Shown here: positions 4,393 through 34,831 of the stretch, piece by piece
Layout: each line of letters starts with the position of its first letter
How positions within the stretch are numbered: the first letter of the stretch is position 1
Source of the DNA: an uncultured Gemmatimonadales bacterium
Lineage (GTDB): Bacteria > Gemmatimonadota > Gemmatimonadetes > Gemmatimonadales > Gemmatimonadaceae
Length of the DNA: 64,000 bases
Assembly: GCA_963805725.1 (NCBI GenBank)
Contig: CAWDVJ010000002.1
Span: forward strand, 3,545 to 67,544
Reading direction: 5' to 3'
Made by a program: the position numbers and the translations under genes
The notes under the pieces: generated by a model
Told to the model about the DNA's origin: nothing
The model's input: only the letters and a program-made list of their open reading frames with translations
Database searches by the model: none

Positions 4393-6348
4393 CTATTGTG
4401 CGCCGGCCATACTGTGGACGACGGCTTGTAGGGCGCGGACGCGTCGTACGTCGCTAGCGGTGCTCGCGTCGTTGCCCAGCCGGGTCGCGAGTCGGGTCAG
4501 CTCGCTCGTGCGCTGCGCGCCGCTCGCGTGCTCGGCCCGATCGAGGGCGCTCGAGATGGCCGACGTCTGGCCGGCGCTCAGTCCGCGGTCACGCACGAGC
4601 TGGTCGACGTAGGCACGCGCGACCGGGAATGCGGCGGGCCAGACCAGCTTGGGCTGGGTCTGCGGATTGAGCTCAGCGAAGCGCACGAGATTCGCCGCGT
4701 CGATCTCGTTCTGCGTGAGATCGGCCGTTGGTGTCAGCTTGAAGATGTCGAGTCCGCGTGCCTTGTCCGATCCGTACAGGTAACCGTTGTAGTAGTACGC
4801 TCCCCAGTAGCCGCCTCGGACCAACTTCGTGGAGTCGATCGGCCCGCGGTCGAAGTAGGCGATCTCCCGAGGGTGCGCGGGATCAGTGAAATCGAAAATC
4901 GAGATTCCGCCCCGATACCAGGCTTGTGACATGATGTCGCGCCCCGGTACGGGGATGAGAGAGCCGTTGTGCGCCACACAGTTTTCCGACGGGCCCTGGG
5001 CGGCCGGCAGCTTGAAGTAGCCAACGTGTGTCAGGGTGTCATGCTGCAGCCTGAAAATCGAATCCGCTCCCCAGTCGGCCGGATCCGTCGGGAGACACTT
5101 GGCCGCCCCACCACCGCCCCACTCGTCGGTGAAAAGAAGCGTGGTCGCGCTGTTGTTGAACGTCGCCGAATGCCAGAAGGCGAAGTTCGAATCGGCTACC
5201 GCCTGCAGCCTCACCGGATGCACCGGATCCTTGATGTTGAGCAGCAGACCGTAGCCCGAGCACGCACCACCAGCCAGGCCCATCGCTGGATAGACCGTGA
5301 TATCGTGGCATTGCGAGGGGCCGCCCGCACTGACGAACTGGCTCAGGGTTGCGGGCACCGTCACACCCATCAGGCGCAGCGAGTCGCTCAACACTCGCAC
5401 CTTGTCCGGGTTGTCCAGCTCGAGAAACAGCAGTGAGAACGTCCGGACGATGCGCAGAGAATCGGAGGCTGAGGTGTTCGGCGGCATCGGCGGCAAGAAC
5501 GGATGCGGCCCGCCCATGAGCGCCCCGTTGGCGGTGTCCGCGACGGCCAAGTTGTAATGCGGGGGCGCCGTGAGACCGCTGAAGATACGGGCCGAGCTGA
5601 CGATCCGGGCTTGTTCCGGATGAGCCAGCGGGACTCGAATAACCTCGATCCGAAACAGTGCGCTGTTCGGATCACTGACTTCGCCCTTGAGGCACTCAGG
5701 CATCTCCGTGGTCGAGCGCACTGGTCCCAGCCCCGACACGTAGATGTATACAACCCCTTTGTTGATCGGGTCCGGCACCATCGTATTGGTGTGCGATCCG
5801 CGGCATGTCTGTACATCGGCGACCTGTTTCGGTTGGGCCGGATCGGACACGTCGAAGATGCGAATCCCGATCATTCGCTCCTTACTGACAGTGTCCTCCA
5901 CACGCTGCATCCCACAGTCCAGCCGGCTCCCCCGGTTCTCTGCCGACACGAACAGCAAGTGACCGGCGAGCGAGACGTCGCCCTGCTCGGTGAAGCACGG
6001 GAGCGCGACCGCGAGCTTGGGGTCTTCCGGATTCGCGATATCCCAGATTTGTAACCCGTTGAAGTTCCCCTGGTACAGGTAGTGACCGCCGAACGCCAGA
6101 TCTGAGTTTGAATACGTCTGAACGGGCTCGTTGGGCTTGAAGACATCAGCCCTGTTCCGGTGGGCGACGAGGTCGAGACCCTTTGCGGCAACACCGGCGT
6201 CGTACAACCCACCCTTGAGGTGGTAGCGCACGTCGGTGGTATCCGCCTGGGCCTGCGCCAGCACCGGGACAGTCAGCGGCACCGCGGCCAAGAGGAGGGA
6301 CCAGCGGACGACGAATTCTGGGACAGACATGGACTGAGACCTCCTCAC
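4393..6348 (-). CDS. secreted LVIVD-repeat-like beta-propeller protein (cassette copy A, intact)
   Basis: 651-aa ORF. Signal peptide [29 protein letters not shown], from ATG 6330 preceded by GGAGG (the ORF-track start is GTG 6348). Blade-like repeats [47 protein letters not shown]. The motifs [18 protein letters not shown] and [17 protein letters not shown] are shared with copies B and C. Confidence 0.8.
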
Positions 6349-6995
6349 TATTGCCTCCCGGTGAGCGACTGTAACAACGCTTGCATGCGCGCAATCTCGG
6401 CGCGCTGACCTGCGTCAATGTCGTTGGCGAATCCGGAAATATCCGACTGCTGACCTCCCCCTGGGGTCGCAAACAGCTGCGCTACCATCTTGAGCGCTCC
6501 CTCGTGATGCGGGATCATCCCCTGCAGGTAGAGACGGTCGAATTCGGTGCCGCGCGCCGCATCGAGTTGCCGCATTTGTGCGGGCGTGAGCATCCCCGAC
6601 ATTATCATCGGATCGAGACCCATGTCCATGTCCGGCATCTGCAGGGGGCTCGTGTCGTGCACGGGACCGACCTGCTTCGAGAGCATGTGCAGGGGATCGG
6701 GGGCCGCGAGACGGCGGTCGAGGAGCCAGTCCTGCATCAACCGGATCTCGTCCCGCTGTGAGAGTGCAATGCGCTTGGCGAGGACGAGGAGCCTCGGACT
6801 CGCATCATGGCTCGACGCCCAATCGGACATGACAACCGCTTGGGCGTGATGCATGATCATACCCTGCATGAAGATGACATCCGCCCCGGTGTAGTCGCGT
6901 GGAGTCGGCCCGGGCCCCTGGGCCAAGAGGGGCGTTGCGCACAGGGCGACGGTGGCGACCGCGGTGCGCCCCGACGCGATCGATCTATTCACCAA
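6348..6995 (-). CDS. DUF305 domain-containing protein (cassette copy A)
   Basis: 215 aa with a signal-like N-terminus. Two DUF305 half-sites, FMQGMIMHHAQAVVMS and YLQGMIPHHEGALKMV. The stop TAG at 6348-6350 abuts the start of the downstream propeller gene. Confidence 0.85.
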   Translation of the reverse strand: MVNRSIASGRTAVATVALCATPLLAQGPGPTPRDYTGADVIFMQGMIMHHAQAVVMSDWASSHDASPRLLVLAKRIALSQRDEIRLMQDWLLDRRLAAPDPLHMLSKQVGPVHDTSPLQMPDMDMGLDPMIMSGMLTPAQMRQLDAARGTEFDRLYLQGMIPHHEGALKMVAQLFATPGGGQQSDISGFANDIDAGQRAEIARMQALLQSLTGRQ

Positions 6996-7092
6996 TCCGC
7001 CTGAACAAACAAGAAGGAGAAAGTCGAAGATTGTGCGGCGGCATCATGCGGCATTCGAGTATGGAACCAGCGTGGTATGCGGCAACATGCCG

Positions 7093-7112
7093 GGGCGGCC
7101 CTCAAGCCGCCC
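7093..7112 (-). terminator. GC hairpin just after the 7114-8070 gene
   Basis: GGGCGGC-cctcaa-GCCGCCC, a 7-bp stem one nt beyond the stop codon. No clear U-tract. Confidence 0.4.
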
Positions 7113-7113
7113 A

Positions 7114-8070
7114 TCACGCTCCGACAGCCAAGAGAGGGTCAGTCCGGCTAATGGCCAACGACGAGACAATGAAAAGAACCACGCCGTCGGATGGACTGAC
7201 TGCTGTTTGCAGCACGGTCCCCTCGCAGTCCTTCACGCAGCCGAGGTTCTGACCGGCGTTTACGGCTTCATTAACCGCAACCGCCGGATACCAAAAGCCC
7301 GCGTGGTCGCTGCGCAACCACAGAAACCGTTCGAGGAGTGTGAACGGCACGGGCTCTGGAGCTCCACCCGAAATCATCTCGAGGTGGCGCATGAGACGGT
7401 TGAGACCATTCGCGTGCCATCGGACGTCCTCGGGCGCCCAAATTCCCTGTCCGCCGGATTCAGGCAGGATGGACGGAATGCCTGCAGCCGAGGCGGCCCA
7501 CACGGTCGACCCCGGAACCTCGCTGCCTACCAGAAAATGAATGCCGAAGATCTTCGCCATTTCCAGCGACATTTCATCGACATGGTTGTCGCCGGACCGG
7601 GAGAAGATCGTGAACGGAACCAGCGCTTCGATTAAATCGCCGCCATGCAAGTCCACATAACATGTGGCTTGCGTGATGACGTTGCCGAACAGCCAAGCCG
7701 CGATTTGTTCAGAGGCAGTGCCGTGCGCATCGCCCGGAAACACACGATTCGGATTCTTGCCGTCGAGAGGACAGACGTAAATGGAACGCGCCGCAAACGC
7801 AGGCATATCCACGACCGGCACCACAATCACGCGCCCGCACAGGCTTGCCGGTTCGAGAGAGCGTCCCAGTTCGAGCGCTGCGGCGATGCTGGCGTATTCC
7901 GCCGCGTGAACGCCGGCTGTCACCACGAGCGTCGGCCCTTCCCCAGCTCCATTGATGAGCCACATCGGAAGGCGGCAAGGGCCGCCCTGCACCACAAATT
8001 CATTTATTCCGAAGAGCTTCTCACCCGGTCCGGCTGAAAGCGCACCGACGGTTAATGGGTTCTTTGACAT
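7114..8070 (-). CDS. succinylglutamate desuccinylase/aspartoacylase (AstE/AspA, M14-like) family protein
   Basis: 318 aa. Family blocks GEGPTLVVTAGVHAAEYAS, NPNRVFPGD and YVDLHGGD. Lies 12 nt downstream of the MFS gene on the same strand. Confidence 0.85.
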   Translation of the reverse strand: MSKNPLTVGALSAGPGEKLFGINEFVVQGGPCRLPMWLINGAGEGPTLVVTAGVHAAEYASIAAALELGRSLEPASLCGRVIVVPVVDMPAFAARSIYVCPLDGKNPNRVFPGDAHGTASEQIAAWLFGNVITQATCYVDLHGGDLIEALVPFTIFSRSGDNHVDEMSLEMAKIFGIHFLVGSEVPGSTVWAASAAGIPSILPESGGQGIWAPEDVRWHANGLNRLMRHLEMISGGAPEPVPFTLLERFLWLRSDHAGFWYPAVAVNEAVNAGQNLGCVKDCEGTVLQTAVSPSDGVVLFIVSSLAISRTDPLLAVGA

Positions 8071-8082
8071 AGGCGTGTTTCC

Positions 8083-9435
8083 CTACCGTGCTGGATCAAC
8101 AGCGAAACTGCTCGAAGGATTCGATCGGTCCGGTAATGGGCGGCGCTCAATTGTTATCGTTTCCAGTCCGTGTGACGACGGGCCCTTTTCGACACGCCAC
8201 AACACGTAGGCGATGCACACGGCCAGCACCGCTATCCCGGTGAAGGTGTATAAGCTCGCACGGTAGCCGGCTGGATTTGCGGCGCTCGCTAGCCAGTGGT
8301 CGTTGGTCCAACCGATCAGCAAGTTGATAATGACCAGACCGAGCTGCTGCACCGAGTCCAACATTCCGTTGGCCAATCCCAGACGCGATCTGTCGACTAC
8401 GTAAACGAGCGCCGGCCACATGACCGCCGGCACCAGGGCGAACGCCACGCCCATCATGGCCATCGGGATTGCAGGCTGGATGTTGGTGAATCCCAGCATG
8501 GGAAATGCCGGTACGATCAGCAACGATCCCAACATCATGAGCAATGACCGGTGTCCGTAGCGATCGACGAGCAGGCCGAAGATTGGCATGCCGATCAGCG
8601 AGAAAAAAGGTTCCATGCCCACCAGCAGCGATGCAGTTTGCGGTGAGACATGCCGAGCCTCAATCAGAAATTTCTGTCCGAACGTTTCAAACGGGAAGAT
8701 GCAACCGTAGAAGGTGAAACACAGCGCTGCAATCAGCCAGAATGAACGACTAAACCGGAATACTTCACGCAAGGGGATTTTCACCGTTCTGGCGCTATGT
8801 CCCAAAGTGAATCGCCGTTCACCGCGTGCATCGAGAATCCAGTAGGCCGCAGCGCCAAGGAGGCAGAGTCCCCCGAAGGCCACGCCGAGAAGAAGAGGCC
8901 AGCGCCAATGAGTGTATGCCTGGGGCAACCAGGCCGGAGACACTTGCGCGCTCAGCGAGCCCAATCGCGCAGCCGACCCGCGGACGCCGAAGGCCAGACT
9001 CAACTCATGGGAGTAGAACCACCGCGCCACGGCGACGTTCGCGGAGAGCGCGAGGGCCTCTCCGCCAAAGCCCACCAGCAGGCGGCCAACGGCCATGACA
9101 GCCAGACGAGGGCTAAGGGCCGTGATAACCAAGCCGATGAAAATGAGGATGCCGAAAATCGACAGCGACTTCCGCGTTCCTGTCCGGTCAATGACCACGC
9201 CGCAGGCCAGCGCCATGACGATGTTCGGGAGACTATAGATGGCCTGCAGCAGGCCAATATCCGAGTTCGAGAAGTGGAGTTGGCGACTGAGCAGCGGCGC
9301 GAGCGGCCCAATGTAATCGAAGGCGTAATAGCCGCCGTAACAGGCGATTCCGATCACCGCGAGGATTGCCCAGCGGGACGCACGCGATGGCGCGGGCTTC
9401 TGAATCGCCTCCGGCTCGATCAAAGCGGCGCTCAT
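8083..9435 (-). CDS. MFS transporter
   Basis: 450 aa, multi-helix hydrophobic profile, loop motif VIDRTGTRKS. Probably co-transcribed with 7114-8070. Confidence 0.85.
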   Translation of the reverse strand: MSAALIEPEAIQKPAPSRASRWAILAVIGIACYGGYYAFDYIGPLAPLLSRQLHFSNSDIGLLQAIYSLPNIVMALACGVVIDRTGTRKSLSIFGILIFIGLVITALSPRLAVMAVGRLLVGFGGEALALSANVAVARWFYSHELSLAFGVRGSAARLGSLSAQVSPAWLPQAYTHWRWPLLLGVAFGGLCLLGAAAYWILDARGERRFTLGHSARTVKIPLREVFRFSRSFWLIAALCFTFYGCIFPFETFGQKFLIEARHVSPQTASLLVGMEPFFSLIGMPIFGLLVDRYGHRSLLMMLGSLLIVPAFPMLGFTNIQPAIPMAMMGVAFALVPAVMWPALVYVVDRSRLGLANGMLDSVQQLGLVIINLLIGWTNDHWLASAANPAGYRASLYTFTGIAVLAVCIAYVLWRVEKGPSSHGLETITIERRPLPDRSNPSSSFAVDPAR

Positions 9436-9703
9436 TCCAAGGCGCGCATTGAGATGAGCGTCTCCATAACAAGAGCATGACCAATTTGATACCGCCCCGC
9501 AATGCTGACAGGAGTGTGACGCGAACAGCCGTACTCAGACAGCTGATCGAAACGCGATGCCCGGCGCGCGACTGAGGAGACCGAGGAGCGTCGACTCAGT
9601 GGTTTCGCCGCGCCAACCTCCCGTCTCGTGGCCGGGATCGTGCAGTCACTTCCCGCCCCGAAGCGACAGCACGCTATCAACTTCTCCGATTTCGAGGTTA
9701 CCG

Positions 9704-13885: not shown

Positions 13886-13890
13886 CGCGA

Positions 13891-16999: not shown

Positions 17000-17623
17000 G
17001 TGACGACCAAACGCGTTGCCGGCGCGCTCGTACTCTTCGCCGTGTTGCTCGGCGGCCCATCGCTCGCGCTCTGCCAGGGCGGCGGCATGGCGGGAATGAG
17101 CGGCATGGACATGGGCCATGAGATCGTGATCCCGAAAGGCGCCGACGTACACCAAGGCCGACGTCGAGTTCATGCAGGGAATGATCGCGCACCACGCGCA
17201 GGCGATCGTCATGTCCCGGATGGCCGCAGTCGCACGGCGCCAATCCGCAAGTGCTGAAACTCTCGACACAAGATCGATCAGTCGCAGGTGCCGGAGATTC
17301 GCATCATGCAGAACTGGCTCCAGCGCAACAACCAGTTCGCGCCCGATACGTCGTCGTGGCACACACGTGATGATGTCGGGCATGCTGACGACCGCACAAC
17401 TCAACGAGCTCGACGCGGCCAAGGGGGTCGACTTCGACCGCGCGTACCTCCGCCTGATGATCCAGCACCACGCCGGCGCGCTGAAGATGGTGGACGACCT
17501 CTTCACCACCCCGGCGCCGGACAGGAAGTCGACGTGAACGTGTTCGCGAACGATGTCGTCACGGTGCAAACCGCCGAGATCGGCATCATGCAGAGGTTGT
17601 ACAAAGAGCTGCCCGCGCAGTGA
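17000..17623 (+). pseudogene. DUF305 domain protein (cassette copy B); about 5 frame changes in 620 nt
   Basis: Pieces 17000..17257, 17172..17537 and 17288..17623. Signal MTTKRVAGALVLFAVLLGGPSLALC, then FMQGMIAHHAQAIVMS, IDQSQVPEIRIMQNWLQ, MLTTAQLNELDAAKGVDFDRAYLRLMIQHHAGALKMV and VFANDVVTVQTAEIGIMQRLY. Confidence 0.8.
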
Positions 17624-17671
17624 ACCGCCGCAGTCGCCCCGTACCACACCCAGCCACCGGAGTCTGTTCCG

Positions 17672-19564
17672 ATGCGCAGTTCATGCAAGCTGATAGGCCT
17701 CATCGCGACCCTCGTCGCTCCGGCGCTCGTGTCGGCGCAGACCTATCCGAGCGCCACCGATCCGCGGAGCAACCTCAAGCCGGGCCGGTTCGACGCCGGA
17801 GAAGCGGCGAGCAACATGCGCCTCGTGTCGTTCTCGCAGAAGCCGGCGCAGTTCGACACGGCGCGCGGCCTGACGTTCATCAACTCCGACCTGGCGTTCG
17901 GCACGCCACTACGTCTACCAGGGCAACTTCGCCGGCTTCACGATATGGGACGTGAGCCGATCCGGCAAAGCCGGTCATCGCGTCGGTCATGGAGTGCATC
18001 ACGTCGCAGGGCGACCCGACGATCGTCGGCAACCTGCTGTTCATCTCCGCCGAGGGCGCGGGCAATCGCAATGACTGCGGCAAGGGCGGCGTGCAGGACC
18101 CGAAGGACCACATGGCGGGCGTGCGCATCTTCGACGTCTCGAACCCGCACGCGCCCAAGCTGATCAAGAACGTGCAGACATGCAAAGGCTCGCACACGTA
18201 CACGGTCGTCCCGAGCCCGACGGATCCAAGAACATCGTCTACCTCTACGTGTCGGGGCAGCAGGCGGCGCGGCCGGACACGGAACTGGCCGGGTGCAAGA
18301 ACGGCACGGACCCCGCGGACCCGACGAACTCGCTCTATCAGCTCGACATCATCAAGGTGCCGCTCGATCACCCCGAGCAGGCCGAAGGTGATCCCGGGCG
18401 CGCGGATCTTCACCGGCCTCGACGCGACCCCGGATTGCGCCGCGTTCTGCGCTCCGGCGACGCCGCCGGCGGCGGCTGCGCCGCGGCACGTGGCGGCGCC
18501 CGACTCGGCGATCGCACGCCGACCGCTGCGTGCACACGGGCCCGCACAACTGCCACGACGTGACGGCGTACCCGGCGATGCACCTCCTGCGTCGCCGCAT
18601 GCACGAGCCACGCCATCCTGGTGGATATCTCGAACCCTGAGAAGCCGGTGCGGCTGGCCGCCCTGACCGACACCAACAATTTCCAGGGCCGGCACACGGC
18701 CGGGTTCAGCAACGATGGCAAGAAGACCATCGTGACCAATGAGTGGGGCGGTGGCACGGGCCCGATGTGCCAGGCCAGCTAGCATGCATGGAGCATGGGC
18801 GGCAACACGATCGTCACCGCTCAGCGCCGACAACAAGAAGCTGACGCAGCGCGCGTACTTCAAGATGCCCGCCGCGCAGACCGCGCGAGGAGAACTGCGT
18901 CGCGCACAACGGGGGCCTCATCCCGGTGCCGGGGCGCGACCTCTACGTGCAGGGCTGGTACCAGGGTGGCGTCGACGTCATGGACTTCACGGACGCGGAC
19001 CATCCGACCGAGATCGCGTACTTCGATCGCGGTCCGATCGATCCGCCGCCGGGCGCGAGTACCGTCCGGCAACGGCGCGATGCGCGGCGGGCGCACCGCT
19101 GCACGATCGGCGGATCGTGGGGCGCGTACTACTGGAACGGGATGATCTACTCGTCGGAGCTCGACCGCGGCTTCGACGTCTTTGAGCTGACGCCGAGCGC
19201 GCAGCTCTCGGCGAACGAGATCGCCGCGGCAAAGCTGGTGAGGTTCAAGGAGTACAACCCGACGAGCCAGCCGAAGCTCGTCTGGCCGCCGGCGTTCGTC
19301 GTGGTGCGCTCGTACCTCGACCAGCTCGTGCGCAACGACGGCCTCGCCGCCGATCGCACCGCCGGCGATCTCGGCGGCGCTCGACGCGGCGGAGCAGAAG
19401 AGCGGTGCGGCGCGCGGCGCGGCGCTCACCGCGCTCGCGAAGCAGGTGGACGGCGACGCGAGCGGGGCGAAGGACGCGGCGCGCGTGCGCATGATGGCGG
19501 CCGCGATCAAACGGCTGGCGGCGGCACAGGTGCCGGCGTCACAACTGGCGTCGCATCGAAGTAA
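17672..19564 (+). pseudogene. LVIVD-repeat-like beta-propeller protein (cassette copy B); at least 10 frame changes
   Basis: Signal MRSSCKLIGLIATLVAPALVSAQ. Homologous blocks are scattered over three frames: [158 protein letters not shown]. The 3' end is uncertain (19564-19646). Confidence 0.8.
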
Positions 19565-19587
19565 CCGCGGGCGGCACGTAGCGGGAG

Positions 19588-19619
19588 ACGAAAGGCGTCC
19601 GGTTCCGGGCGCCTTTCGT
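19588..19619. terminator. hairpin between convergent genes
   Basis: ACGAAAGGCGTCCGG-tt-CCGGGCGCCTTTCGT (one G.T pair), followed by TCGCTTGT on the plus strand. Confidence 0.5.
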
Positions 19620-19642
19620 TCGCTTGTGCCGGGCAGTCGCTG

Positions 19643-20398
19643 TTAGTGGGCTCCGTCGCGGGTCCAGAGCACCAGCGCCCCGCAGGTCGCGGCGTCGCGA
19701 AGCTCGGCAGGCACCGTCGCGGGCTGCGCGTAGAGCTCGATCCCCACGAGTTGCTCGGCGAAGATCTTGTCGAGATCGGGCGGCTGGGCGCCTGTGAACG
19801 GATAGATCCGAACGCCGTCGCGGACCACCGCGGCGTAGCAGGGCGAGGACGCGCTCGCCGGCGACCGCATAGCGAGTTGGGACTCTCCGTGCGGTCCCGG
19901 CACGATGAACGCGCCCGCATCCATCTTGTAGGACATTGGCAAGCGGACGTCCGGCAGCAGCGTCGAGCTGCGCACGGGTGAAGAACTTGCCCTGCCCCTT
20001 CGTTCGCCGAGCGTCGAACCCCGCGAACGTCAGGTCCGTCTTTTGTCCCTTCGCCTTCGCCGTGTCCGACGCGAGAATGGGGATGAGCACGAGCTGGACG
20101 GGCTGCGGGATGTTCGGCCCGGTGTTGAAATTGTCCTCAAACGTCTGGTAGCCGCGCGCGACCACTTCGACAATGTGCCCACCGTCGTCCAAGTCGGGAA
20201 CCAACACGTTGCCGGCGGAATCGGTGTTTCCGGCCTCGATGGTGTGATCGATCGTGACGACCGCGCCCCGGATGGACACGGTGTCACCCGCCCGGTGGAG
20301 GTGAAGCACCACGTCACGGGTGCCCTGGGCTCCGGCCACACGGGCCGATATCACAGCGGCGCCGACAACGCCAGGCAAAGAACTCGCACGATTCGCAT
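19643..20398 (-). CDS. carboxypeptidase-regulatory-like (CarboxypepD_reg) domain secreted protein; 2 frame changes
   Basis: ATG 20398 with signal MRIVRVLCLALSAPL. Beta-sandwich block DVVLHLHRAGDTVSIRGAVVTIDHT...NVLVPDLDDGGHIVEVVARGYQ. C-terminus GIELYAQPATVPAELRDAATCGALVLWTRDGAH-stop. Frame changes at about 20355 and 19960. Confidence 0.65.
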
Positions 20399-20427
20399 GA
20401 AGATCAGGTTCGGGTTGCGTGTAGAGA

Positions 20428-20880
20428 TTAGAGCCCCAAAATAACGCGGCGCCGTCGTCTGGCGACTCGGTCGACGCGGTCCGAGACCGACGCTTGGAAC
20501 TCACCTTCGGCCGCGATGATCTTGGCTCGCCGCTCGCGTTTCCGCTTCGGCCTGGGCGGCAATCGCTCGCTGCATGTCCTGCGGCAAGTCAACTTGCTTG
20601 ACCTGGACCTGCGTGACTTTGACGCCCAAGGCCTCGGTGTGTTCGTCGAGCATCGCCTGCAGCCGTACGTTCAACTTCTCAGGCTCTGAGAGGAGATCAT
20701 CCAACTCGACCTCGCCGAGTAACGAACGCAGCCCGGTTTGAGCCGCCTGCTCAACCGCATAGCGATAGCTTTCTACTTCGACGACAAACGCAAGCGACGC
20801 AAGCACCGTGATGTTCACAGCGATTCTCCGTTGCTCCGGGATGACCGGCGATCGTCACGCCAACGATCAGTATCCCCTTC
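20428..20880 (-). pseudogene. SPFH/band-7 (slipin/HflC-like) gene remnant
   Basis: [92 protein letters not shown], then [17 protein letters not shown] in another frame. No N-terminal membrane anchor. The upstream part collides with the mreB start. Confidence 0.6.
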
Positions 20881-25165: not shown

Positions 25166-26371
25166 TCACTCGGAGTAGTCCACCGGGAGCTCATGGCTCG
25201 CGTCGTTGTAGAGGATGCCGATCAACGGAATGCCAGGCTCGGCTACTGCGTCTGAGCGACGAGCCATGACCTCGCCGGCCACCCCGCTCGTGTATTCGGC
25301 CACTACGTCGCCAAACGTATTTCGCTGGATGGCAACCTTCTGCCCAACTTTGACCTTGTCCTTCAACTTGACCAGAAGCTCCACGAATCCGCCATGAGTT
25401 GCAAGGATGGTGTGCCCACTGTTGGCGATGAAGATGTCCGTATCCCTCCCGGTGCGGCCCATCTGACCGGAGAGAATCCCGTGGTGCTTGAGCACATTCA
25501 TTGTGCCTTCGACGAACAAGGGGATCATGTTGAGGTCCAGGACGCGCGAAGCGCCAATCTCTGGCGTGAGTGCCGGGATGCCCACATCGATGAATGCGTT
25601 CGCGAGCAGTGTGGGATAGGCGGCGTTGTCGAAGATCTGGTCGATGGGAAAGAGCTCCGCCATCGCCCGCACCTCAGGCAATTCCATCCGGGCGAGATTG
25701 AACGCTGTCACATCCATACCTGTCGTCCCGGTATGAAAATCGAGGGCGTAGTCGGCGTTCGGTTTGAAGAGTTTGTTGAACAGGATGCCAGCGTGCCGGC
25801 TGGCAGCACTGGCACCATTCTCATTTCCGGGCCATTCGCGGTTGATGTCAATGAGGTCGATTCCTCTTCCTGAATTCGGCCATCTGCGCGCCATGCCTTC
25901 CAGGGCCGGACGGGATACGTCAGGGACTGCCACGACCGTACCCGACATCTGGGCAGGATCGAGCTGGCTCATGACGGTTTGGATCGTGTGCACCGAACTG
26001 ATCTCATCGCCGTGCACACCACTGGTGAGAGCGATGCGCTTACCCGGCTTCGCCCCCGCGGCGACTAGCACTGATACATACCAGTGCTGACCCGTTGGCA
26101 TTTGCACACCCTCGAAATAGAACGCGTGCTTCTTGCCACGTTCCAGATCATTCACGTCGAGAACGCTGATGACTTTCTTCCCATCGATCACATCGCCGGT
26201 GTAGACCGTTTTTTGTGGTGCACCCGGTGCTGGGCCAACGGGCGACGCTTTGGTGTCCTGGGCATTCGCAGTGCCGGCACTGCTCGCAAGAATGGCCGAC
26301 GTGCCAACCAGGCCGATGGCCGCAACTATGAAGTCACGGCGATCGAGGCCGTCCTTTTGTTCGTTCGGCAT
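25166..26371 (-). CDS. succinylglutamate desuccinylase/aspartoacylase family protein, Tat-secreted
   Basis: 401 aa. Twin-arginine signal RRDFIVAAIGLVG. GVHGDEISS, INREWPGN, LDFHTG. Confidence 0.85.
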   Translation of the reverse strand: MPNEQKDGLDRRDFIVAAIGLVGTSAILASSAGTANAQDTKASPVGPAPGAPQKTVYTGDVIDGKKVISVLDVNDLERGKKHAFYFEGVQMPTGQHWYVSVLVAAGAKPGKRIALTSGVHGDEISSVHTIQTVMSQLDPAQMSGTVVAVPDVSRPALEGMARRWPNSGRGIDLIDINREWPGNENGASAASRHAGILFNKLFKPNADYALDFHTGTTGMDVTAFNLARMELPEVRAMAELFPIDQIFDNAAYPTLLANAFIDVGIPALTPEIGASRVLDLNMIPLFVEGTMNVLKHHGILSGQMGRTGRDTDIFIANSGHTILATHGGFVELLVKLKDKVKVGQKVAIQRNTFGDVVAEYTSGVAGEVMARRSDAVAEPGIPLIGILYNDASHELPVDYSE

Positions 26372-27540: not shown

Positions 27541-27949
27541 ATGCCAATGTTACGGCATTCGCCGATACTCGGGGAGCGCGGCGACTCACGCGTGAGAGGC
27601 CGCCAATGGTCGGCAACGGGCATTTCTGCACGGCACCGGTCCACCGGGATGCCCGGGTGGACTCGGCGCCTGTGACAAGCCAGCACCCCGACCCAAGACG
27701 GCGGATTCAACTGTTCCCGTAAATCCCCCGGCGGTTGCCGCCGCCGTCCCCTGTGGACTCTGTACAGACGCATTTCACGTGCATTGCGACAGTGCGTGGC
27801 GCGCATCCTGCGCCTGGGACCAGTCTGCCGCCGGGCACTGTCACGACGGCGGACAGCGTTCCACGCTCAGCGCGGTTGGTCATCGCATGCGCGCGGTGCT
27901 AGGAGAATGCGCGCGCACAATCGAGGGAGGCGAGGAAGGAGATACGCAC

Positions 27950-28726
27950 ATGCCGTCCGACGCATCACATGACTCGACTCAACGGGCCCGTTTAACCACG
28001 CGCGAGTTGCCCGGGAGCGACCGACGGGAGTTCCTCCGCCTGGTTGGCCTCGGCGCCGCAGCGGCCTGTCTACCGGGCTTGCTCAGCGCCTGCAGCACCG
28101 CAGCGGCCACGTCGCCGGTCAGTTCCACGCCGCCTGCGGACACCACGGCCAAGGCCTCGGGCCCCCCGAAGATTACGCTCGATTTCAGCACCGACTACGG
28201 CGTGCTGAACCTCGCATACCTGCTCGAGCAGGTGGCGTCTGCGTTCTACACAGAGGTGAACAAGGCGCCGCCGCCGAACATGGATAGCCACGAGCAGTAT
28301 GTGCTGCAGCAGATCGCGGTTCACGAGGCCATCCACGTGAGCTTCTTCAAGACGGCCCTCGGCAACCATGGCATCCCGCAGGCCACCCTCAACTTTGCGA
28401 CCGTGAACTTCAAAGACCGGGACAATGTGCTCATTACCGCGAAGACTCTCGAGGATTTGGACGTTGGAGCATACAATGGGGCTGCGCCGTTTCTGCAGAG
28501 CGCAACCAACCTCACGCTTGTGGCGAAGATCGTCTCCGTGGAGGCGCGGCACGCTGCGGCGGTGCGGGACCTCCTGGCGCCTCGGACGAGCGCCTTCGCA
28601 GGAAGCGATGTCATCAACGCCGAAGGCTTCGACCAGGCTTTGCTCCCGTCCAATGTGCTGACGTCGGTCGCGCCGTACGTCAAGAATCAAATCGTGCTCA
28701 CCAACGTCCCCTCGGCTACGGCGTAA
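27950..28726 (+). CDS. ferritin-like (Ferritin_2-type) domain protein, Tat signal
   Basis: ATG 27950 after GGAGGCGAGGAAGGA. SDRREFLRLVGLGAAAACLPGLLSAC signal. LNLAYLLEQVASAFY, HEAIHVSFF, VSVEARHAAAVRDLL. Confidence 0.85.
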   Translation: MPSDASHDSTQRARLTTRELPGSDRREFLRLVGLGAAAACLPGLLSACSTAAATSPVSSTPPADTTAKASGPPKITLDFSTDYGVLNLAYLLEQVASAFYTEVNKAPPPNMDSHEQYVLQQIAVHEAIHVSFFKTALGNHGIPQATLNFATVNFKDRDNVLITAKTLEDLDVGAYNGAAPFLQSATNLTLVAKIVSVEARHAAAVRDLLAPRTSAFAGSDVINAEGFDQALLPSNVLTSVAPYVKNQIVLTNVPSATA

Positions 28727-28736
28727 GGAGCGACGA

Positions 28737-29585
28737 ATGGATCCGTACACTACCCCCTCCGAACCCGTTCTCGAGACGCTGGACCCGGAGATTCGCGCCC
28801 GTCTGGCGCAGCGGGAGGCAGAGATCGCGCACGGCGCGAGCGTTGCGCGCGTGACGGCGGCTGGTTTGGCCATGGCATCCGTGCCCGTCGCGCTCGCGGC
28901 ATTGGCGCGCGACGTGTTCGCGCAGGGAGGTCTCCCAGCCAACATCGTGTCCATTCTCAACTTTGCGCTGATGCACGAGTACATGGAGTCGACGTTGTAT
29001 AACTACGGCCTCTCCGAGCACTTTCAGGTCGTTCCGGGCGAAGACATCCCGCTGTTCCAGACCATCCAGGCACACGAGAACCTGCACAAGCAGTATCTCC
29101 TTGCCACTCTGGGCTCGGAGGCCGTTCGCGAGCCGTTTTTCGATTGGTCAGGTGGAGGCGGCACGTACAACGGCCCGTACCATGCGGCGTTCTACGAGTA
29201 CAACGAGTTCAAGGCGCTGTCGCAGTCCTTCGAGGACCTCGGCGTGCGGATGTACAAGGGGCTAGCGCCGGCTCTGATGGGGGAGCAACCCCTCCTGCTC
29301 GCCGCGCTGCAGATCCATTCGGTCGAGGCGCGGCACGCATGCGAGGTGCGGCGGCTCCGTGGCAACTTCCTCGACAATGTGCCCAACCGGGGGTGGATCA
29401 CGGGCAACCAGACGGACATCTCCCTCACCAGCGCGTTCTACGCCGCGGAAGAGAACACCGTCCAGGACGGCATCGACCTCGTGACGCTGCAATTCAGCGC
29501 GGCGGACGCGAGCGAGGCGTTCGACGAACCAATGACCATGCAGGAGGTGCAGGCGGCACTCGTCCCCTTCATAATCCCGCCGTAA
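28737..29585 (+). CDS. ferritin-like (Ferritin_2-type) domain protein
   Basis: 282 aa, starting 10 nt after the previous gene. ILNFALMHEYMESTLY, HENLHKQYL, IHSVEARHACEVRRL. Confidence 0.85.
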   Translation: MDPYTTPSEPVLETLDPEIRARLAQREAEIAHGASVARVTAAGLAMASVPVALAALARDVFAQGGLPANIVSILNFALMHEYMESTLYNYGLSEHFQVVPGEDIPLFQTIQAHENLHKQYLLATLGSEAVREPFFDWSGGGGTYNGPYHAAFYEYNEFKALSQSFEDLGVRMYKGLAPALMGEQPLLLAALQIHSVEARHACEVRRLRGNFLDNVPNRGWITGNQTDISLTSAFYAAEENTVQDGIDLVTLQFSAADASEAFDEPMTMQEVQAALVPFIIPP

Positions 29586-29643
29586 TGGCCCCATTGAGCG
29601 ACGCTCAGCCGGCCGTCCTTCCTCTTTTCTGCGTCGCTCCTTT

Positions 29644-29674: not shown

Positions 29675-29678
29675 GCCG

Positions 29679-31646
29679 TCACCGGCTGCGGGATTGGACG
29701 TCGGCGGTTGACTTGGCGGTGTTGCCCTGCCACGATGCGAGGATCTCGGCCTGCAGCACGTCGGGGTGGTCGATCGGCGTCATGTGGTAGCTCTCGTCCA
29801 TGCGGTGTGCCAGCGTCACGTCGATCGTCCGGTCGTGGCCGTCCCGGGAGATCCCGACCTTGACCACATCGCCGGGCTTCTTGGTCACGATATAGGCGCG
29901 CAGCGTCGCGCCCGGGGTCGTGGCGCCATCGATCGATTCGACTATGTCTCCTACTCGGAGGCCGGCGCGCTCCGCGGGTGACTTCTCCTTGACCGCCGTG
30001 ATCGCCACCTTGCCGTCGACGTCCTCGTCGATCGCGCCGAGGAAGGGATCCTTCGTCTCGACCGGCGGATCGACTCGCAGTCCAGCGTAGGCGAGATACT
30101 TGGGATAGTCGATCTCCTTGGTCGTGTTGGCGTACTGGAACACCTCGTCCAGCGGTGCGCCGGCCACGGCCTCGCATGCCTTCTGGAATTCCTCGTCGGT
30201 CCAGCCACGCTTCAGCTGCTTGTAGTACTTCTGGTAGAGATTGCGCATCACATTGTCGAGCGACTTCTGGTTCTTCGTGTCGTGGCGGATTGCGAAGTCG
30301 AGGACGAGACCCAGCAACGGCCCAGTGTTGTAGTAGGAGACCGTCTTGGAGATCGGGCCGGTCGATGGGATGCCGGGTTGCGCGGGGCCGCCAGGCGTCC
30401 CAGCACGGGTGCGCGCCCCAGTGGCTCCGCCACCGCCGGCGCCTCCCTGCCCCCGTCTAGCAAAGCTGTACTGCGTCCAAGTGTTCCAACTGTCCATGGC
30501 GGGCGACTCATAGAGATGGCCGGTGCCGTCTTCCACCGTTTTCATGTCTTTCGTGAAGCTGCCCAACAGATCATCCAGCGTCATGAGCCCGGCACGCGCC
30601 ACCAGCATGTACTCGTAATAGACCGTGAAGCCCTCCGAGACCCAGAGCATGTGCGTGCGGTTTTCCCGGTCGTAGTCGAAAGGCCCGAGCGCGATGGGGC
30701 GGATGCGCTTCACGTTGTAGGTGTGGAAGTACTCGTGCGCCAGGAAGCCAAGCTCGCGATTGCGCACCGGTCCCGGGGCGTCGTATGCGGGGTTCGCATG
30801 GAAGGGAACGGCCGCAGAGTTCAGGTGCTCGACGCCGCCGCCGCCAGCACCGTAGCCCAGGAACACATAGTGGGAGTACGGGATATCGCCCATCATCCGC
30901 GTGGCGACCTGCACGATGGCCTTCAGCTCGCCCATGAACTCGGCGCCGTCGAAGGCCTGTGCGTCCATGTTGTAGGCGACGAACTCGTGGCGCACACCCC
31001 CCACCTCGAAGGCCGGGAGTGAATCCAGATTGCCGATGAGAATTGGACTGTCGTACAGCGCGTCGTAATTGGGCGCCTCGTAGACGTGGCGCGCGCCTGG
31101 CGAGGCAGGATCGAGACCGGTGGCCACGTCTCGCCACCCAGCCGGCGGCTCAATGTCCACGGTCACGCGATGGTTGATGAGGCCCGCGGGATACATGAAG
31201 ACGCCGGTGCCGATCAGGAAGCCGTGCGAGCCGTCGAGATAGGGGCTGGCCACGAACGCCGTCGTGGCCAGTACGTCGTACGTCAGCGTCACCCTCGGGG
31301 CATTGGCCGTCCGCACACGCCAATCGTTGGGCGAGACCTTGTCGTTGACCGACACGCTGTCCCACCCGAGGGTATGCCCCGTGCCGTCCACGGCTTTGAA
31401 GTCTTTCACGTTGCGCGCGAAATCCATGATGCCGTAATAGCCTGGCGACCACACTGGCAGCTTGAAATCGATCGAGGATCCCGTCAGGCTGTCGCACTGC
31501 ATGACGACGTGATAGACCTGCGAGGCCGCATCCGGCATCGTCACCGTGAAGGCAATCGTCCCGCGCGCCTGTTGCGCCGAGGCCAACGAGGCCGACAACA
31601 ACAGGACGCCGACGCCGAACAGCATGCTGCGACCCATGTTCTTCAT
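29679..31646 (-). CDS. M61 family glycyl aminopeptidase with C-terminal PDZ domain
   Basis: 655 aa. Signal MLFGVGVLLLSASLASAQ. HEYFHTYNVKRIRP. PDZ-like GLRVGDIVESIDG. Confidence 0.9.
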   Translation of the reverse strand: MKNMGRSMLFGVGVLLLSASLASAQQARGTIAFTVTMPDAASQVYHVVMQCDSLTGSSIDFKLPVWSPGYYGIMDFARNVKDFKAVDGTGHTLGWDSVSVNDKVSPNDWRVRTANAPRVTLTYDVLATTAFVASPYLDGSHGFLIGTGVFMYPAGLINHRVTVDIEPPAGWRDVATGLDPASPGARHVYEAPNYDALYDSPILIGNLDSLPAFEVGGVRHEFVAYNMDAQAFDGAEFMGELKAIVQVATRMMGDIPYSHYVFLGYGAGGGGVEHLNSAAVPFHANPAYDAPGPVRNRELGFLAHEYFHTYNVKRIRPIALGPFDYDRENRTHMLWVSEGFTVYYEYMLVARAGLMTLDDLLGSFTKDMKTVEDGTGHLYESPAMDSWNTWTQYSFARRGQGGAGGGGATGARTRAGTPGGPAQPGIPSTGPISKTVSYYNTGPLLGLVLDFAIRHDTKNQKSLDNVMRNLYQKYYKQLKRGWTDEEFQKACEAVAGAPLDEVFQYANTTKEIDYPKYLAYAGLRVDPPVETKDPFLGAIDEDVDGKVAITAVKEKSPAERAGLRVGDIVESIDGATTPGATLRAYIVTKKPGDVVKVGISRDGHDRTIDVTLAHRMDESYHMTPIDHPDVLQAEILASWQGNTAKSTADVQSRSR

Positions 31647-32202
31647 GCGATGTTTCCTCTTGAGCGCTACGGAGCGTTAGGTCCCATGAAGGTACCTGGC
31701 GACGGCGCAGGGTAAGCCGCCACTGTTGTGCTTCTGCCGGTTCGCAAACATGCGGGAGCAGATGCCAACAGCAGCAACCAGCTGTGGTTCGCGAGAACCT
31801 CGTCTGCCGCGAAACTACAGGCCTTCCATGGTTCAGGCGAGGCGTCAATGGGGATTGGCCAGGACCGCACGGTGGCCGTTTGAGCGATGCCTTTGGTAGC
31901 CCCACGGGACGCGTGGGGCCGCTTGCGCCAGGTGAGGCGGAAGCGCTATCGTCTTGCCAGATGGTGGCATTTCCCTCTCGATCGTAGATCAGACCGCAGC
32001 GACGCATGGCGGAACCGACATTTCCGAGACCATGACCATGTCGGGTCGCCGACGTCATTGCGGACTGCACTTTGGGGTGGATTCCCTACACGCGGGCAGT
32101 TGCATCATGGCCAGGGCCCACATCCCGATGGCCTCATGTTTCGGGTCCCGCCGTCGTAAAGGCGAACCCAATCGTGCGGGACCGCGTTCATCAGGCCCGG
32201 CG

Positions 32203-32860
32203 ATGAACGGGTTTCTTCATCTGGCCATGCTCGCCGGCCTTGCTTTCGGCCAGAGCAATCGCCTGCCAAACGCCAACGGGCGGGTCTGGCAGCGGGAACG
32301 AAGGCGCGACCCCGCGCGTTTCCGCCCCGGCCGCGCCGGCCCTGCAGCCCCCGACGGCTGCCAATGTGCACTTCATGACGGGCATGATCAGCCACCATGC
32401 CCAGGCGGTTGTCATGGCCCGGTGGGCGCCATCGCACGGGGCGTCGCCGAGCGTGCTCGGGATCTGTGACCGGATCGCGGTGTCGCAAACCGATGAGATC
32501 AAGTACATCCAGAACTGGTTAGCCGATCGGCATCAGCCGGTGCCGCAGCCCGATCCGCACGGCCTCACGATGGCCGGCATGGATCACCCGATGCTCATGC
32601 CCGGCATGTTGAGTCCGGAGCAGATGGCCGCGCTCGACCAGGCGCGAGGGACCGCGTTCGATCGCCTGTTTCTCGAAGACATGATCGTGCATCACCAGGG
32701 CGCGATTACAATGGTGCAAGAGCTGATGCACTCCTACGGCGCGGCGCAGGACCCGCTGTTCTTCCAATTCGCGACCAATGTGAACGCCAACCAGTCCGCG
32801 GAGATCGAGCGGATGACGCGAATGCTCGCTGCATTGCCGCCCGCGACAGCGGGCCAATGA
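32203..32860 (+). CDS. DUF305 domain protein (cassette copy C); probable N-terminal frame change
   Basis: Main ORF 32240..32860 has HFMTGMISHHAQAVVMA and FLEDMIVHHQGAITMV. The only signal-like start (ATG 32203, MNGFLHLAMLAGLAFG) is one frame off, which suggests a frame change near 32280. Confidence 0.8.
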
Positions 32861-32927
32861 TAGGATGCACTCTTTAGATCTCGACGCTCTTTCGCTTTCG
32901 CTCGCTTTCCTTTTCACGAGTCCAGCC

Positions 32928-34831
32928 ATGACCCGTCATCTCGCAGCAACCCGTCGCGGCCCGGGCCGCACTGCATCCGCGGTCTTTGCGGTCACGGGGG
33001 CGCTCGTCGCCGCCTCGCTCATGCTGGCGCCGCGCGCGTGGTCGCAATCGGGGGACGAGCGCCAATCGGTGGCGGTGGTCAACACGTCCACCACGCCGCC
33101 CAATCCGGATCCGCGCAATGCATTGAAGGCAGGCTGGCCGGACGCTGGGCAAGCGTCGTGGAACATGCAGCTCGATGCCGCCGTACGACCGCCGGAGCCG
33201 TTCTTCGATCCGAATGGCCCGGGACCCACGTTTCGCAGCACGAACAGCGACCTGGCCTTCAAGGGTAAGTACGTGATTCAGGGTAACTACAAAGGGTTCC
33301 AGGTCTGGGACGTCTCGAATCCGAGCCAGCCACATATCGCCGGCGTGTCCGTGTGTCCTGGTGGGCAGGGTGACGTGTCCGTGTATCACAATCTGCTCTT
33401 CCTCTCAGTGGAAGATCTGGCCGGGCGTGTCGACTGCGGCACCCAGGGGGTGCCGGACACCGTCAGCAAGGAGCGGTTCCGCGGAGTGCGCATCTTCGAC
33501 ATCAGCGACATCCAGCACCCGAAACAGATCGGCGGCGTTCAAGCCTGTCGCGGGTCGCACACCAACACGCTGGTGGAGGACCCGAACGACAAAGCCAACA
33601 TTACATCTATTCTTCGGGCAACGCGGCGTCCCGGTCATCGAGCGAGCTCGCCGGGTGTTCGGAAAACGCAGCCGACGACGACCCGAACGCGCCGCGATTT
33701 TTGATCGAAGTGATCAAGGTGCCGCTGGCGCACCCCGAGCAGGCCAAGATCGTGAGCACGCCGCGAATCCTTAACCAGCTCGCACCAGTGACCTACCACG
33801 CTCCGCTTCCGGAGGACCAGGCGAGGCGAGCGGCAGCGATGGCGGCCAGGGAAGCCGCGGCGGCCGCCAGTGGTGCCAAGCCCGCTGGGCCGCAGCATTC
33901 GGCGATCACCCCGGTTGTCATGTATTGCCACGACATCACGGCTTACACGTCCATTGGGAGGGCCGGCGCCGCATGCATCGGCTACGGGCTGCTGCTCGAC
34001 ATTCGTGACCCTGCGAATCCGAAACGGATCACGGCGGTGGCCGACTCGAACATCGCGGTCTGGCATTCGGCCACGTTCAGCAACGACGGGAAGAAAGTCG
34101 TGTTCGGGGATGAGTGGGGCGGACCGCACTGCCGGGGGACGGACAACAAGGATTGGGGCGGCCTCTCGATCTATGGGCTCGCAAGCGACGGGATGCAGTT
34201 CACGAGCTATTACAAGATTCCGGCTGCGCTGGCCGCCACTGCGGAATGCACGGCTCACAACGGCTCGCTGATCCCCATCCCCGGCCGCGACGTCGCCGTG
34301 TACAGCTGGTACGAAGGCGGGATCTCAGTGGTCGACTGGAGCGATGCGTCGCATCCGAAGGAGATCGCCTTCTACGATCTCGGCGCCAATGATTCGACGA
34401 AAGTGACGATGGGAGGCTTCTGGTCGACGTACTGGTATAATGGCCACATCTACGGTTCCGAAATCACGCGAGGCCTAAACGTTCTCGAGCTCAAGCCCAG
34501 TGGCCTCCTCTCGCAGAACGAGATCGACGCGGCCAAGTCGGTTCACCTCGACACCTTCAACCCTCAGAGCCAGAAGAAGATCGTCTGGCCGGCGACGTTC
34601 GCGCTTGCGCGTGCGTATCTCGATCAGTTGGGTCGTAACGACGGCCTGTCGGCCGATAAGCGCGCCGAGGCGGCTCGTAGTCTCACCGCGGCAGAGAAGC
34701 AGAGCGCCGACGCGCGCAGGACGTCGCTCACGACATTGGCGACGAAGCTCGACGGCGACGCGGCTACCGCGGGCGATGCCGCTCGGGTGCGGCTCCTCGC
34801 CAACGCGGTTCGCAGGCTCGCGGCTAGTTAG
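32928..34831 (+). CDS. LVIVD-repeat-like beta-propeller protein (cassette copy C); 1 frame change
   Basis: ATG 32928. [50 protein letters not shown]. At ~33601 (aacattacatc, apparently one T short) it continues in the frame of 33701..34831 ([39 protein letters not shown]). Confidence 0.85.

Follow-up and report, generated by a model that had tools for sequence, protein, structure and literature searches.

DUF305 is a common secreted domain whose sole studied member, CopM of Synechocystis PCC 6803, is regarded as a copper binder that works without a partner. CopM is periplasmic and partly extracellular, binds both Cu(I) and Cu(II) and provides resistance to copper (PMC4335983); an MxxHH motif forms its strongest site for Cu(II) (PMC11836926), and its Met-rich composition has been linked to the binding of Cu(I) (PMC11836926, PMC4335983). 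Here we describe DUF305 proteins that are encoded side by side with a large secreted β-propeller, in a two-gene cassette that occurs three times on a stretch of 64,000 nucleotides (hereafter the window) of a metagenome-assembled contig from an uncultured Gemmatimonadaceae bacterium (CAWDVJ010000002.1, positions 3,545 to 67,544; 63.6% G+C). This pairing is conserved across phyla and has never been characterized. We propose, with moderate confidence, that the propeller is a secreted metalloenzyme and that the DUF305 protein is a dedicated CopM-like metal-handling partner, which serves or protects its metal site.

Comparison of the cassette DUF305 proteins with the structures of CopM (5FEJ, 5FFA-E) and with 2QF9 and 3BT5 reveals a common plan, namely a secreted protein of ~200 amino acids (aa) that forms a four-helix bundle with two MxxHH half-repeats and a Met-rich linker. 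The genetic settings differ: CopM is encoded with a two-component system (copMRS) near copper efflux genes and acts alone, whereas the cassette DUF305 gene shares an operon with a propeller gene and has no copper genes nearby. The only characterized relative of the propeller family is Sb-PTE of Sphingobium sp. TCM1 (5HRM, 5IOJ), which degrades flame retardants; its known substrates are man-made. Like the cassette propeller, Sb-PTE is secreted and has seven blades, disulfides and LVIVD-like blade motifs. It has a metal centre at the tunnel mouth that is made of His residues at the starts of inner strands, and three of its four His ligands have counterparts in the propeller. The two are ~12-21% identical, and two Glu ligands and one His ligand of Sb-PTE are not conserved at the aligned positions; the propeller family has, beyond Sb-PTE, the invariant residues H387, D402/E403 and D343, a helical, lid-like insertion and a C-terminal four-helix tail. 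The LVIVD-repeat and TIGR04312 surface proteins resemble the cassette propeller, whose own match to the repeat is marginal, in the repeat type of the outer blade strands, and the invariant His ring is not in those family definitions.

Small secreted metal-binding helpers that are encoded with a larger secreted metalloenzyme, and are needed for its metallation, are known from the pairs MelC1-MelC2 (the tyrosinase caddie and its client) and NosL-NosZ; the catalytic domain of NosZ is a seven-bladed propeller with a His-ligated centre. Any analogy with these would be functional only, DUF305 being unrelated to MelC1 or NosL in sequence or fold, and NosZ is not among the top 50 fold matches that Foldseek returns for the model of propeller A. 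We found no paper that mentions both DUF305 and LVIVD, and two that mention in passing a DUF305 gene beside a β-propeller gene. In Starkeya novella, Snov_0990 (DUF305) lies 12 bp upstream of Snov_0991 (β-propeller), the two are co-expressed, and their promoter is activated by the extracytoplasmic function (ECF) sigma factor RpoE1 (PMC6527743); in Myxococcus xanthus, MXAN_3416/MXAN_3417 place a DUF305 gene beside that of a secreted β-propeller in the copper-regulated curA cluster (PMC3707914). These propellers, annotated as YVTN and PQQ_2 respectively, are likened to ours by annotation only, and their genes adjoin regulators (RpoE1; CorSR), unlike the window cassettes.

A tblastn search of the window with the copy A proteins recovered exactly three DUF305 and three propeller loci (E 1e-28 to 1e-97), at the places where a first-pass annotation, made from the letters of the DNA and its open reading frames (ORFs), had put them. 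The DUF305 gene comes first in each, and the spacing agrees with that annotation: in copy A GGAGG lies between the DUF305 stop and the propeller ATG, in a gap that amounts to 17 nt, and the gaps of 48 nt stated for copy B and 67 nt for copy C are correct. The parts are as follows:

6348..6995, minus strand: copy A DUF305/CopM-like gene, 215 aa, TTG start, TAG stop at 6348-6350, intact; signal peptide, half-sites MIMHH and MIPHH, Met-rich disordered linker (ORF list, Pfam, AlphaFold).
4393..6330, minus strand: copy A gene for the secreted seven-bladed propeller, 645 aa from the ATG at 6330, intact; candidate metal residues D118, H180, H342/D343, H387, D402/E403 and H454.
5326..5535, minus strand: insertion between blades 3 and 4 of propeller A (residues ~266-335), variable and partly helical (paralog alignment and model).
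4396..4713, minus strand: C-terminal extension of propeller A (residues ~540-645), a conserved NEIxAA...WP segment and then four helices.
17000..17623, plus strand: copy B DUF305 gene, GTG start after GAAGGAGG; about five frameshifts; half-sites MIAHH and MIQHH (ORF fragments, tblastn, frameshift-aware alignment).
17672..19564, plus strand: copy B propeller gene, ATG at 17672; at least nine single-base insertions; true 3' end uncertain.
32203..32860, plus strand: copy C DUF305 gene, signal peptide and domain in different frames; half-sites MISHH and MIVHH.
32928..34831, plus strand: copy C propeller gene, ATG at 32928, 67 nt past the DUF305 stop; split near 33601.

A hydrophobic signal-like stretch is present at all six N-termini, in agreement with the signal peptides that had been claimed. 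The paralog alignment contains every motif that had been quoted: two MxxHH in each DUF305 protein, and TC(R/K)GSHT, CHD(I/V)T(V/A)Y and (N/E)C(V/T)AHNGxLIP(V/I)PGRD in the propellers. Compared in pairs, the window propellers are 45-48% identical and the window DUF305 proteins 38-49%. In other Gemmatimonadaceae, intact orthologs of A reach 83-91% and those of B 81% (86% once its frameshifts are corrected), as against ~48% between window copies, which bears out the view that these are old paralogs rather than the products of a recent duplication. Propeller A is 100% identical to the database protein P0001 (645 aa), and the closest genomes are long-read metagenome-assembled genomes (MAGs) of Gemmatimonadales from soil.

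The assignment of the small protein to DUF305 is strongly supported by a search with the Pfam model (PF03713, cut-off 27), which gave 134.1 bits for copy A (E 5.7e-39), 139.5 bits for copy C (E 1.2e-40) and 65.4 bits for one fragment of copy B. The accompanying statement, that no function is established for either family of the cassette, does not hold for DUF305, to which CopM (PMC4335983) belongs and for which there are several structures (5FEJ and others). The NCBIfam model for CopM (NF049983) gave 80.9 bits for A and 82.5 for C, below its cut-off of 90, and by this measure the window proteins are relatives of CopM and not equivalogs. Among PDB entries, the sequence relatives of the copy A protein are CopM (E 3.5e-9), 3BT5 and 2QF9. 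An AlphaFold model from a shallow alignment of window sequences only (pLDDT 77.5) is built of four long helices, with residues 108-126 forming a disordered, Met-rich linker; the best fold matches in Foldseek are 2QF9 and 3BT5 (TM 0.82-0.87), then the CopM entries (0.77-0.81, target-normalised), then Dps/ferritin-like bundles. A His-His motif is found in both halves of each window copy, and a two-fold pattern runs through the cassette proteins, AD..F..MIxHHAQA...Q.DEI...WL in the first half and FD...L..MIxHHxGA..MV...Q..EI.RM in the second. H49, H50, H163 and H164 are invariant in 46 cassette DUF305 proteins; counted over 46-85 of them, the invariant set comprises M46-x-x-H49-H50 and M160-x-x-H163-H164 together with Q80/D82/E83 and Q197/E200. 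About 8% of the residues are Met. The idea that these are lipoproteins, with a Cys after the hydrophobic stretch, was rejected, most orthologs ending in a plain ...AQ site without Cys; copy C is a possible exception.

The large protein had been called LVIVD-like, and this identification holds only at the margin. The Pfam model (PF08309, cut-off 20.2) gave 22.0 bits for A, just above the cut-off, and 18.5 for the N-terminal half of C; the other pieces had no match. A precomputed LVIVD match is carried by 21 of 120 A-type orthologs among the matches listed and by nearly all B-type orthologs. The TIGR04312 'choice-of-anchor B' model gave 37.8 and 41.2 bits against a cut-off of 100, a weak match over residues 369-536, and a C-terminal sorting signal is absent from the propeller, whose C-terminus is the four-helix tail in the model. 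The family itself is large, with at least 8,000 matches at E <= 1e-5 in a word-based search, and with 4,349 clusters at 50% identity at E <= 1e-3, 641 of them at E <= 1e-30.

An AlphaFold model of propeller A, built with 42 diverse sequences (pLDDT 86.8, pTM 0.83), shows seven four-stranded blades by DSSP, closed by N-terminal strands. The insertion at ~266-335 contains helices at 288-303, 308-320 and 328-331; it is much shorter in B and C in the paralog alignment, and is possibly a lid or specificity element. The helical C-terminal tail described in the first-pass annotation is present in the model as four helices (residues 568-643, pLDDT 96-98); the extension is common to A, B and C, and actinobacterial homologs are without it (profile coverage ends at ~521-523 in two of their loci, L092 and L093). 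A single propeller sequence finds no sequence relative in the PDB. Searched with Foldseek, the model has as its first match 5HRM, the phosphotriesterase of Sphingobium sp. TCM1 (E 1.9e-14), and the next matches are generic WD40-like propellers at E 4e-9 or worse, five orders of magnitude behind. A family sequence profile run against the PDB likewise puts 5HRM and 5IOJ in the top two places (E 0.002 and 0.004), and hhalign aligns this profile with an Sb-PTE-type gene of a Sphingobium plasmid at 95.9% probability (E 6.4e-9, 300 columns). Model, Foldseek and hhalign thus agree on a seven-bladed propeller fold homologous to 5HRM.

To describe conservation we use 44 full-length representatives of different 50%-identity clusters and, in addition, all 150 representatives including fragments, for which the counts are given as kept out of aligned:

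D118: 41 of 44 full-length; 73 of 81 among all 150.
H180: 40 of 44 full-length; 84 of 105 among all 150.
H342: 36 of 44 full-length; 104 of 118 among all 150.
D343: 35 of 44 full-length.
H387: 40 of 44 full-length; 123 of 134 among all 150.
D402: 39 of 44 full-length.
E403: 40 of 44 full-length; 121 of 129 among all 150.
H454: 41 of 44 full-length; 122 of 129 among all 150.

H180, H342, H387, E403 and H454 are accordingly kept in 80-95% of the 105-134 aligned representatives. Other His and Cys residues that had been counted as invariant are not family-wide, H237 and H486 not being conserved in diverse relatives and C176/C213 being variable. By DSSP on the model, the conserved residues begin the innermost strand of blades 2, 3, 4, 5 and 6, with E403 just after strand B of blade 5, and in the model they sit where Sb-PTE and other propeller enzymes place metal ligands.

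A structure paper of 2016 is said to describe in Sb-PTE a binuclear Mn centre with the ligands Glu201, His258, His317, His389, Glu407 and His475, and reportedly lists the disulfides 146-242, 411-443 and 542-559. At the positions so numbered, the plasmid homolog of Sb-PTE has exactly these ligand and Cys residue types once a constant shift of 13 is applied beyond residue 320, which supports the numbering. In the hhalign register H180 lies two positions from His317 and H454 one from His475, D118 is beside His258, and the CHDITVYP motif corresponds to WHSVVP around His389, which matches H342 by motif; of the four His ligands, three have H180, H342 or H454 at a distance of 0-2 positions. Glu201 is outside the aligned region, with D77 nearby. 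Since only part of the Sb-PTE ligands have aligned counterparts, the alignments indicate a propeller site that is related to that of Sb-PTE and not identical with it, and we do not file the family as Sb-PTE-type phosphotriesterases. A register placing all six Sb-PTE ligands on D118/H180/H258-259/H387/E403/H454 was considered and rejected, the H258/259 position being mostly gapped in diverse relatives.

The identity of the nearest relative and the conserved residues both bear on the classical LVIVD reading, in which the protein would be a non-enzymatic cell-surface or adhesion propeller, and DUF305 would be linked to it by operon history only. The first descriptions of LVIVD repeats came from cell-surface proteins (PMC2447325), fn3 or Big_3_5 domains occur in some propeller relatives, and the weak LVIVD and TIGR04312 matches given above point the same way. 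We nevertheless consider such a role very improbable: a near-invariant ring of His, Asp and Glu at the predicted tunnel mouth, across clusters less than 50% identical, is unexpected in an adhesin, the best structural and profile match is an enzyme, and the linkage to DUF305 survives changes of orientation and of phylum.

Eight Cys residues are common to the three propeller paralogs. Across representatives, covariation links C112 with C139 (phi 0.77), C176 with C213 (0.41) and C341 with C357 (0.31), and the rest give no signal; a C357-C412 pair, suggested by the Sb-PTE alignment, was discarded (phi -0.02). In light of this covariation, of the export of the protein and of the three disulfides of Sb-PTE, it is more likely that most or all of the conserved Cys form structural disulfides bracing the ligand loops than that they make up a redox or metal site; C341 and C451, each of which adjoins a His, might conceivably serve as metal ligands. 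The first-pass annotation had suggested a periplasmic metal- or redox-handling module. Its metal half is the best-supported general idea, given the CopM fold and motif of DUF305 and the His/Asp/Glu ring of the propeller; its redox half is unsupported, as nothing specifically points to redox chemistry and the Cys are better accounted for as disulfides.

Gene linkage was surveyed in 87 loci from species-representative genomes and metagenomes, which hold 100 full-length propeller ORFs with enough upstream sequence. A DUF305 gene lies directly upstream on the same strand for 82 of the 100, and most of the exceptions are tandem arrays of the order propeller-propeller-DUF305-propeller (L007, L017, L023, L028). 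Among divergent relatives (36-48% identity), DUF305 is upstream of P0123 and P0229, downstream of P0161 and convergent with P0128; in Streptomyces sp. NBC_00184 and Nonomuraea gerenzanensis it is divergently adjacent to a propeller that has no C-terminal tail. The identity matrices of DUF305 and propeller in 85 cassettes correlate with r = 0.84, a value reached by none of 999 permutations; this fits duplication and divergence as a unit, and shared species phylogeny also contributes. An adjacency above chance, which the reading in the first-pass annotation requires, is borne out by the upstream count, the linkage in Actinomycetota and this correlation. The two genes do not depend on each other equally: 150 plasmid records have DUF305, in many cases with no propeller, while confident propeller homologs (E <= 1e-10) occur on two, a third being a short weak match. 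No conserved third gene was found around the ~90 cassettes inspected; the genes met next most often (ABC exporter, Ser/Thr kinase, DNA ligase, ArsR-type regulator) were seen in 14 loci or fewer and have no connection with metals. On either side of the window cassettes lie divergent or convergent genes for unrelated products (glyoxalase, M61 peptidase, AstE-like). Promoter and terminator scans around all three cassettes gave chance-level counts, and a k-mer search for a shared upstream operator in 82 cassettes returned only GC-rich words.

Two further arrangements were seen in these surveys. In some Gemmatimonadaceae, two or three tandem propellers have a single DUF305 gene before the last (the four arrays named above, and also L018 and L021), so that one DUF305 helper may serve several propellers. 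On plasmids of Rhodococcus (L095) and Mycobacterium avium (L096), DUF305 adjoins a secreted ~410-aa 'Ig-like domain-containing protein', and in Rhodococcus also DUF6153, which hints that DUF305 pairs with other secreted partners too.

Starting from the homology, fold, residue conservation and gene linkage described above, we infer metal binding by the propeller, the identity of the metal, catalysis and transfer of metal between the two proteins. Each cassette would be a self-contained two-gene operon for the cell envelope. Its propeller would be a secreted, disulfide-stapled, distant homolog of the binuclear-metal hydrolase Sb-PTE (a haloalkylphosphorus hydrolase), holding one or two metal ions at the mouth of the central tunnel; these would be bound at the starts of the innermost strands of blades 2-6 by D118, H180, H342/D343, H387 with D402/E403, and H454/N455. 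Because of its homology with Sb-PTE and of a metal that would be held by invariant residues at the tunnel mouth, the propeller is most likely an enzyme. The DUF305 protein, for which a four-helix bundle of the CopM type is predicted, has two MxxHH sites and a flexible linker rich in Met; it would bind a metal, for which copper is the best guess. In the periplasm it would either load the propeller site or keep the wrong metal out of it, in the role of a dedicated metallochaperone or 'caddie'. The cassettes themselves would be three ancient paralogs duplicated as units; that they differ most in the lid-like insertion suggests different substrates. A wider claim, which we advance only tentatively, is that the cassette represents a widespread class of envelope metalloenzymes in which a His-ringed propeller depends obligatorily on a CopM-type protein as its metallochaperone; behind this claim stand the thousands of sequence clusters, the many copies per Gemmatimonadota genome and the members in Actinomycetota.

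Several observations weigh against the proposal of an enzyme and its metal-handling partner. Descriptions of CopM make it a copper sponge or exporter and not the chaperone of a client enzyme, and the Sb-PTE gene lies beside IS6100 with no DUF305 neighbour. The six-ligand set of Sb-PTE is incomplete in the propeller, where Asp takes the place of His258 and the invariant Ala353 that of Glu407; in the hhalign register nothing in Sb-PTE corresponds to H387 or E403; alignments of propellers are prone to errors of blade register; and the spatial clustering of the conserved His, Asp and Glu is deduced from strand positions and homology. Solitary propellers with no DUF305 gene within 6 kb exist (L019, L035, L071), DUF305 is absent beside the divergent propellers P0194 and P0165, and the sampled loci are mostly from one phylum and not independent. 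Finally, no copper or other metal genes were found near any cassette in the window or in the ~90 related loci inspected.

This last observation, which extends to copper regulators, also counts against a role in copper tolerance, whereby DUF305 would sequester periplasmic copper and the propeller would be an accessory copper-binding or copper-oxidising protein, the pair buffering or detoxifying the metal without catalysis on an external substrate. The homology with CopM and the MxxHH and Met-rich features (PMC4335983) speak for such a module, as do a plasmid DUF305 gene in a CueR/P-type ATPase/HMA island (Acinetobacter plasmid) and the copper-regulated curA cluster of M. xanthus, in which a DUF305 lipoprotein is encoded beside a β-propeller lipoprotein (PMC3707914); that propeller (PQQ_2), however, is compared by annotation only. 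Given further that the closest structural relative is a hydrolase, and that three to many paralogs per genome with variable lids fit a diversification of substrates better, we judge this role unlikely.

Still less probable is that the cassettes are an envelope-stress or sulfur-oxyanion pair in the manner of Snov_0990/Snov_0991, with the propeller acting on a sulfur compound such as tetrathionate or sulfite adducts. The Starkeya pair, RpoE1-activated and highly expressed on tetrathionate, supplies the sole expression data that we found for DUF305 together with a propeller (PMC6527743). Snov_0991, on the other hand, is annotated as YVTN and not as LVIVD and is likewise compared by annotation only, and no ECF sigma/anti-sigma pair lies beside the window cassettes or recurs in related loci. 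This role would be a special case of the metalloenzyme proposal and does not contradict it.

As deposited, only copy A is an intact pair of ORFs; the first-pass annotation, which presented all three copies without such a qualification, made no mention of the frameshifts in B and C. Copy B has in total at least 14 one-base frameshifts and copy C two. In the DUF305 gene of B, frameshift-aware alignment places about five frame changes of one or two bases near 17147, 17217, 17266, 17369 and 17509; its propeller gene has at least nine, nearly all of them single inserted bases outside homopolymers. The end coordinate 19564 that had been given for copy B is the stop of a shifted-frame ORF, and the correct frame continues past ...RLAAAQ with no stop right after. 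In the DUF305 gene of C, the domain ORF (from TTG 32240, 206 aa) lies one frame on from the signal peptide (from ATG 32203), and this difference implies one frameshift near 32240-32250; its propeller gene is split near 33601 into the ORFs 32865-33704 and 33701-34831.

These numbers of frameshifts, their position outside homopolymers and a single in-frame stop in the reconstruction of B could be taken to mean that B and C are true pseudogenes, leaving one working cassette beside two decaying ones. With the extra bases removed, in an alignment guided by P0271, propeller B shows 86% identity to an intact ortholog across 607 residues, so that its divergence does not exceed that between A and the A-type orthologs (83-91%), an outcome that would be unexpected after decay through 14 indels; it keeps all motifs, and its one in-frame stop lies in a locally garbled stretch. 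Intact B-type orthologs are numerous (605-630 aa, 74-81% identity), and nearly all events in B are +1 insertions. Indels are also patchy, the dense patches at 724-4471 and 17100-20010 breaking adjacent unrelated genes, whereas 4400-9560, for example, is clean: relative to the closest genome, 724-4389 has 19 indel events (15 of them single-base) and 7105-9558 only one. Thus, an AMP-binding/acyl-CoA synthetase gene at ~3000-4460, the L001 and L004 orthologs of which are intact (511 and 522 aa), is divided among three frames, and the gene downstream of B is split near 19975 into overlapping same-strand ORFs, 19539-20504 (minus) and 19643-19975 (minus), neither of which matches any Pfam family. 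The closest genomes are long-read metagenome bins, and in one such MAG a second cassette is split likewise (L029). Together, the close match of corrected B to an intact ortholog, the intact B-type orthologs, the patchiness of indels across unrelated genes and the split in L029 indicate that the frameshifts in B and C are most likely, for the greater part, assembly errors; true pseudogenes appear unlikely, and all three cassettes are therefore probably functional in the organism. The indel patches suggest uneven consensus quality of a long-read assembly. Methylation-linked basecalling errors at GATC were considered as a source and dropped, 6 of the 14 B events lying within 12 nt of a GATC against ~4 expected, which is not significant.

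The partnership with an enzyme-like propeller suggests a testable job for DUF305, that of supplying or guarding the metal of a client. If the wider, tentative claim made above is true, the propeller would be the first physiological client for DUF305/CopM, and the recruitment of Sb-PTE as a xenobiotic phosphotriesterase would have been from this natural enzyme family. No new principle is involved, and the function is one deduced from the comparisons above. The propeller family has expanded in Gemmatimonadota, a phylum that is abundant in soil and whose envelope has received little biochemical study. The natural substrates of the family, once known, could reveal periplasmic chemistry and starting points for the engineering of organophosphate hydrolases.

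Searches of the window returned no tRNA or Rfam families. Two adjacent Ferritin_2 (ferritin-like domain) genes, at 27779-28726 (plus strand) and 28737-29585 (plus strand), encode putative metal-binding helical bundles and are unlinked to the cassettes. Two further paralog pairs each have one member adjoining a cassette: M61 glycyl aminopeptidases with a PDZ domain, at 29679-31646 (minus strand) and 48852-50792 (minus strand), and AstE/AspA-like proteins, at 7114-8070 (minus strand) and 25166-26371 (minus strand). A gene for a GTPase of the CobW/COG0523 type, a metallochaperone family, at 47170-47781 (minus strand) seems to run into an overlapping ORF at 47714-48427 (minus strand), which may be another frameshift. 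A 727-aa ORF at 35173-37356 (minus strand), without a Pfam match, contains a 160-nt direct repeat (36980-37139 and 37196-37355, 96% identical, spacing 216 nt) that duplicates its signal-peptide-like N-terminus; this could be a real duplication or an assembly artefact. Finally, intergenic repeats of ~120-180 nt at 48620-48800, 59540-59710, 40400-40520 and 56090-56210 contain hairpins and long inverted AGAAAGTAGAAAGTAGA / TCTACTTTCT arms; the family has no Rfam or tRNA match, recurs in a related genome (L004) and looks like a REP- or MITE-like element.

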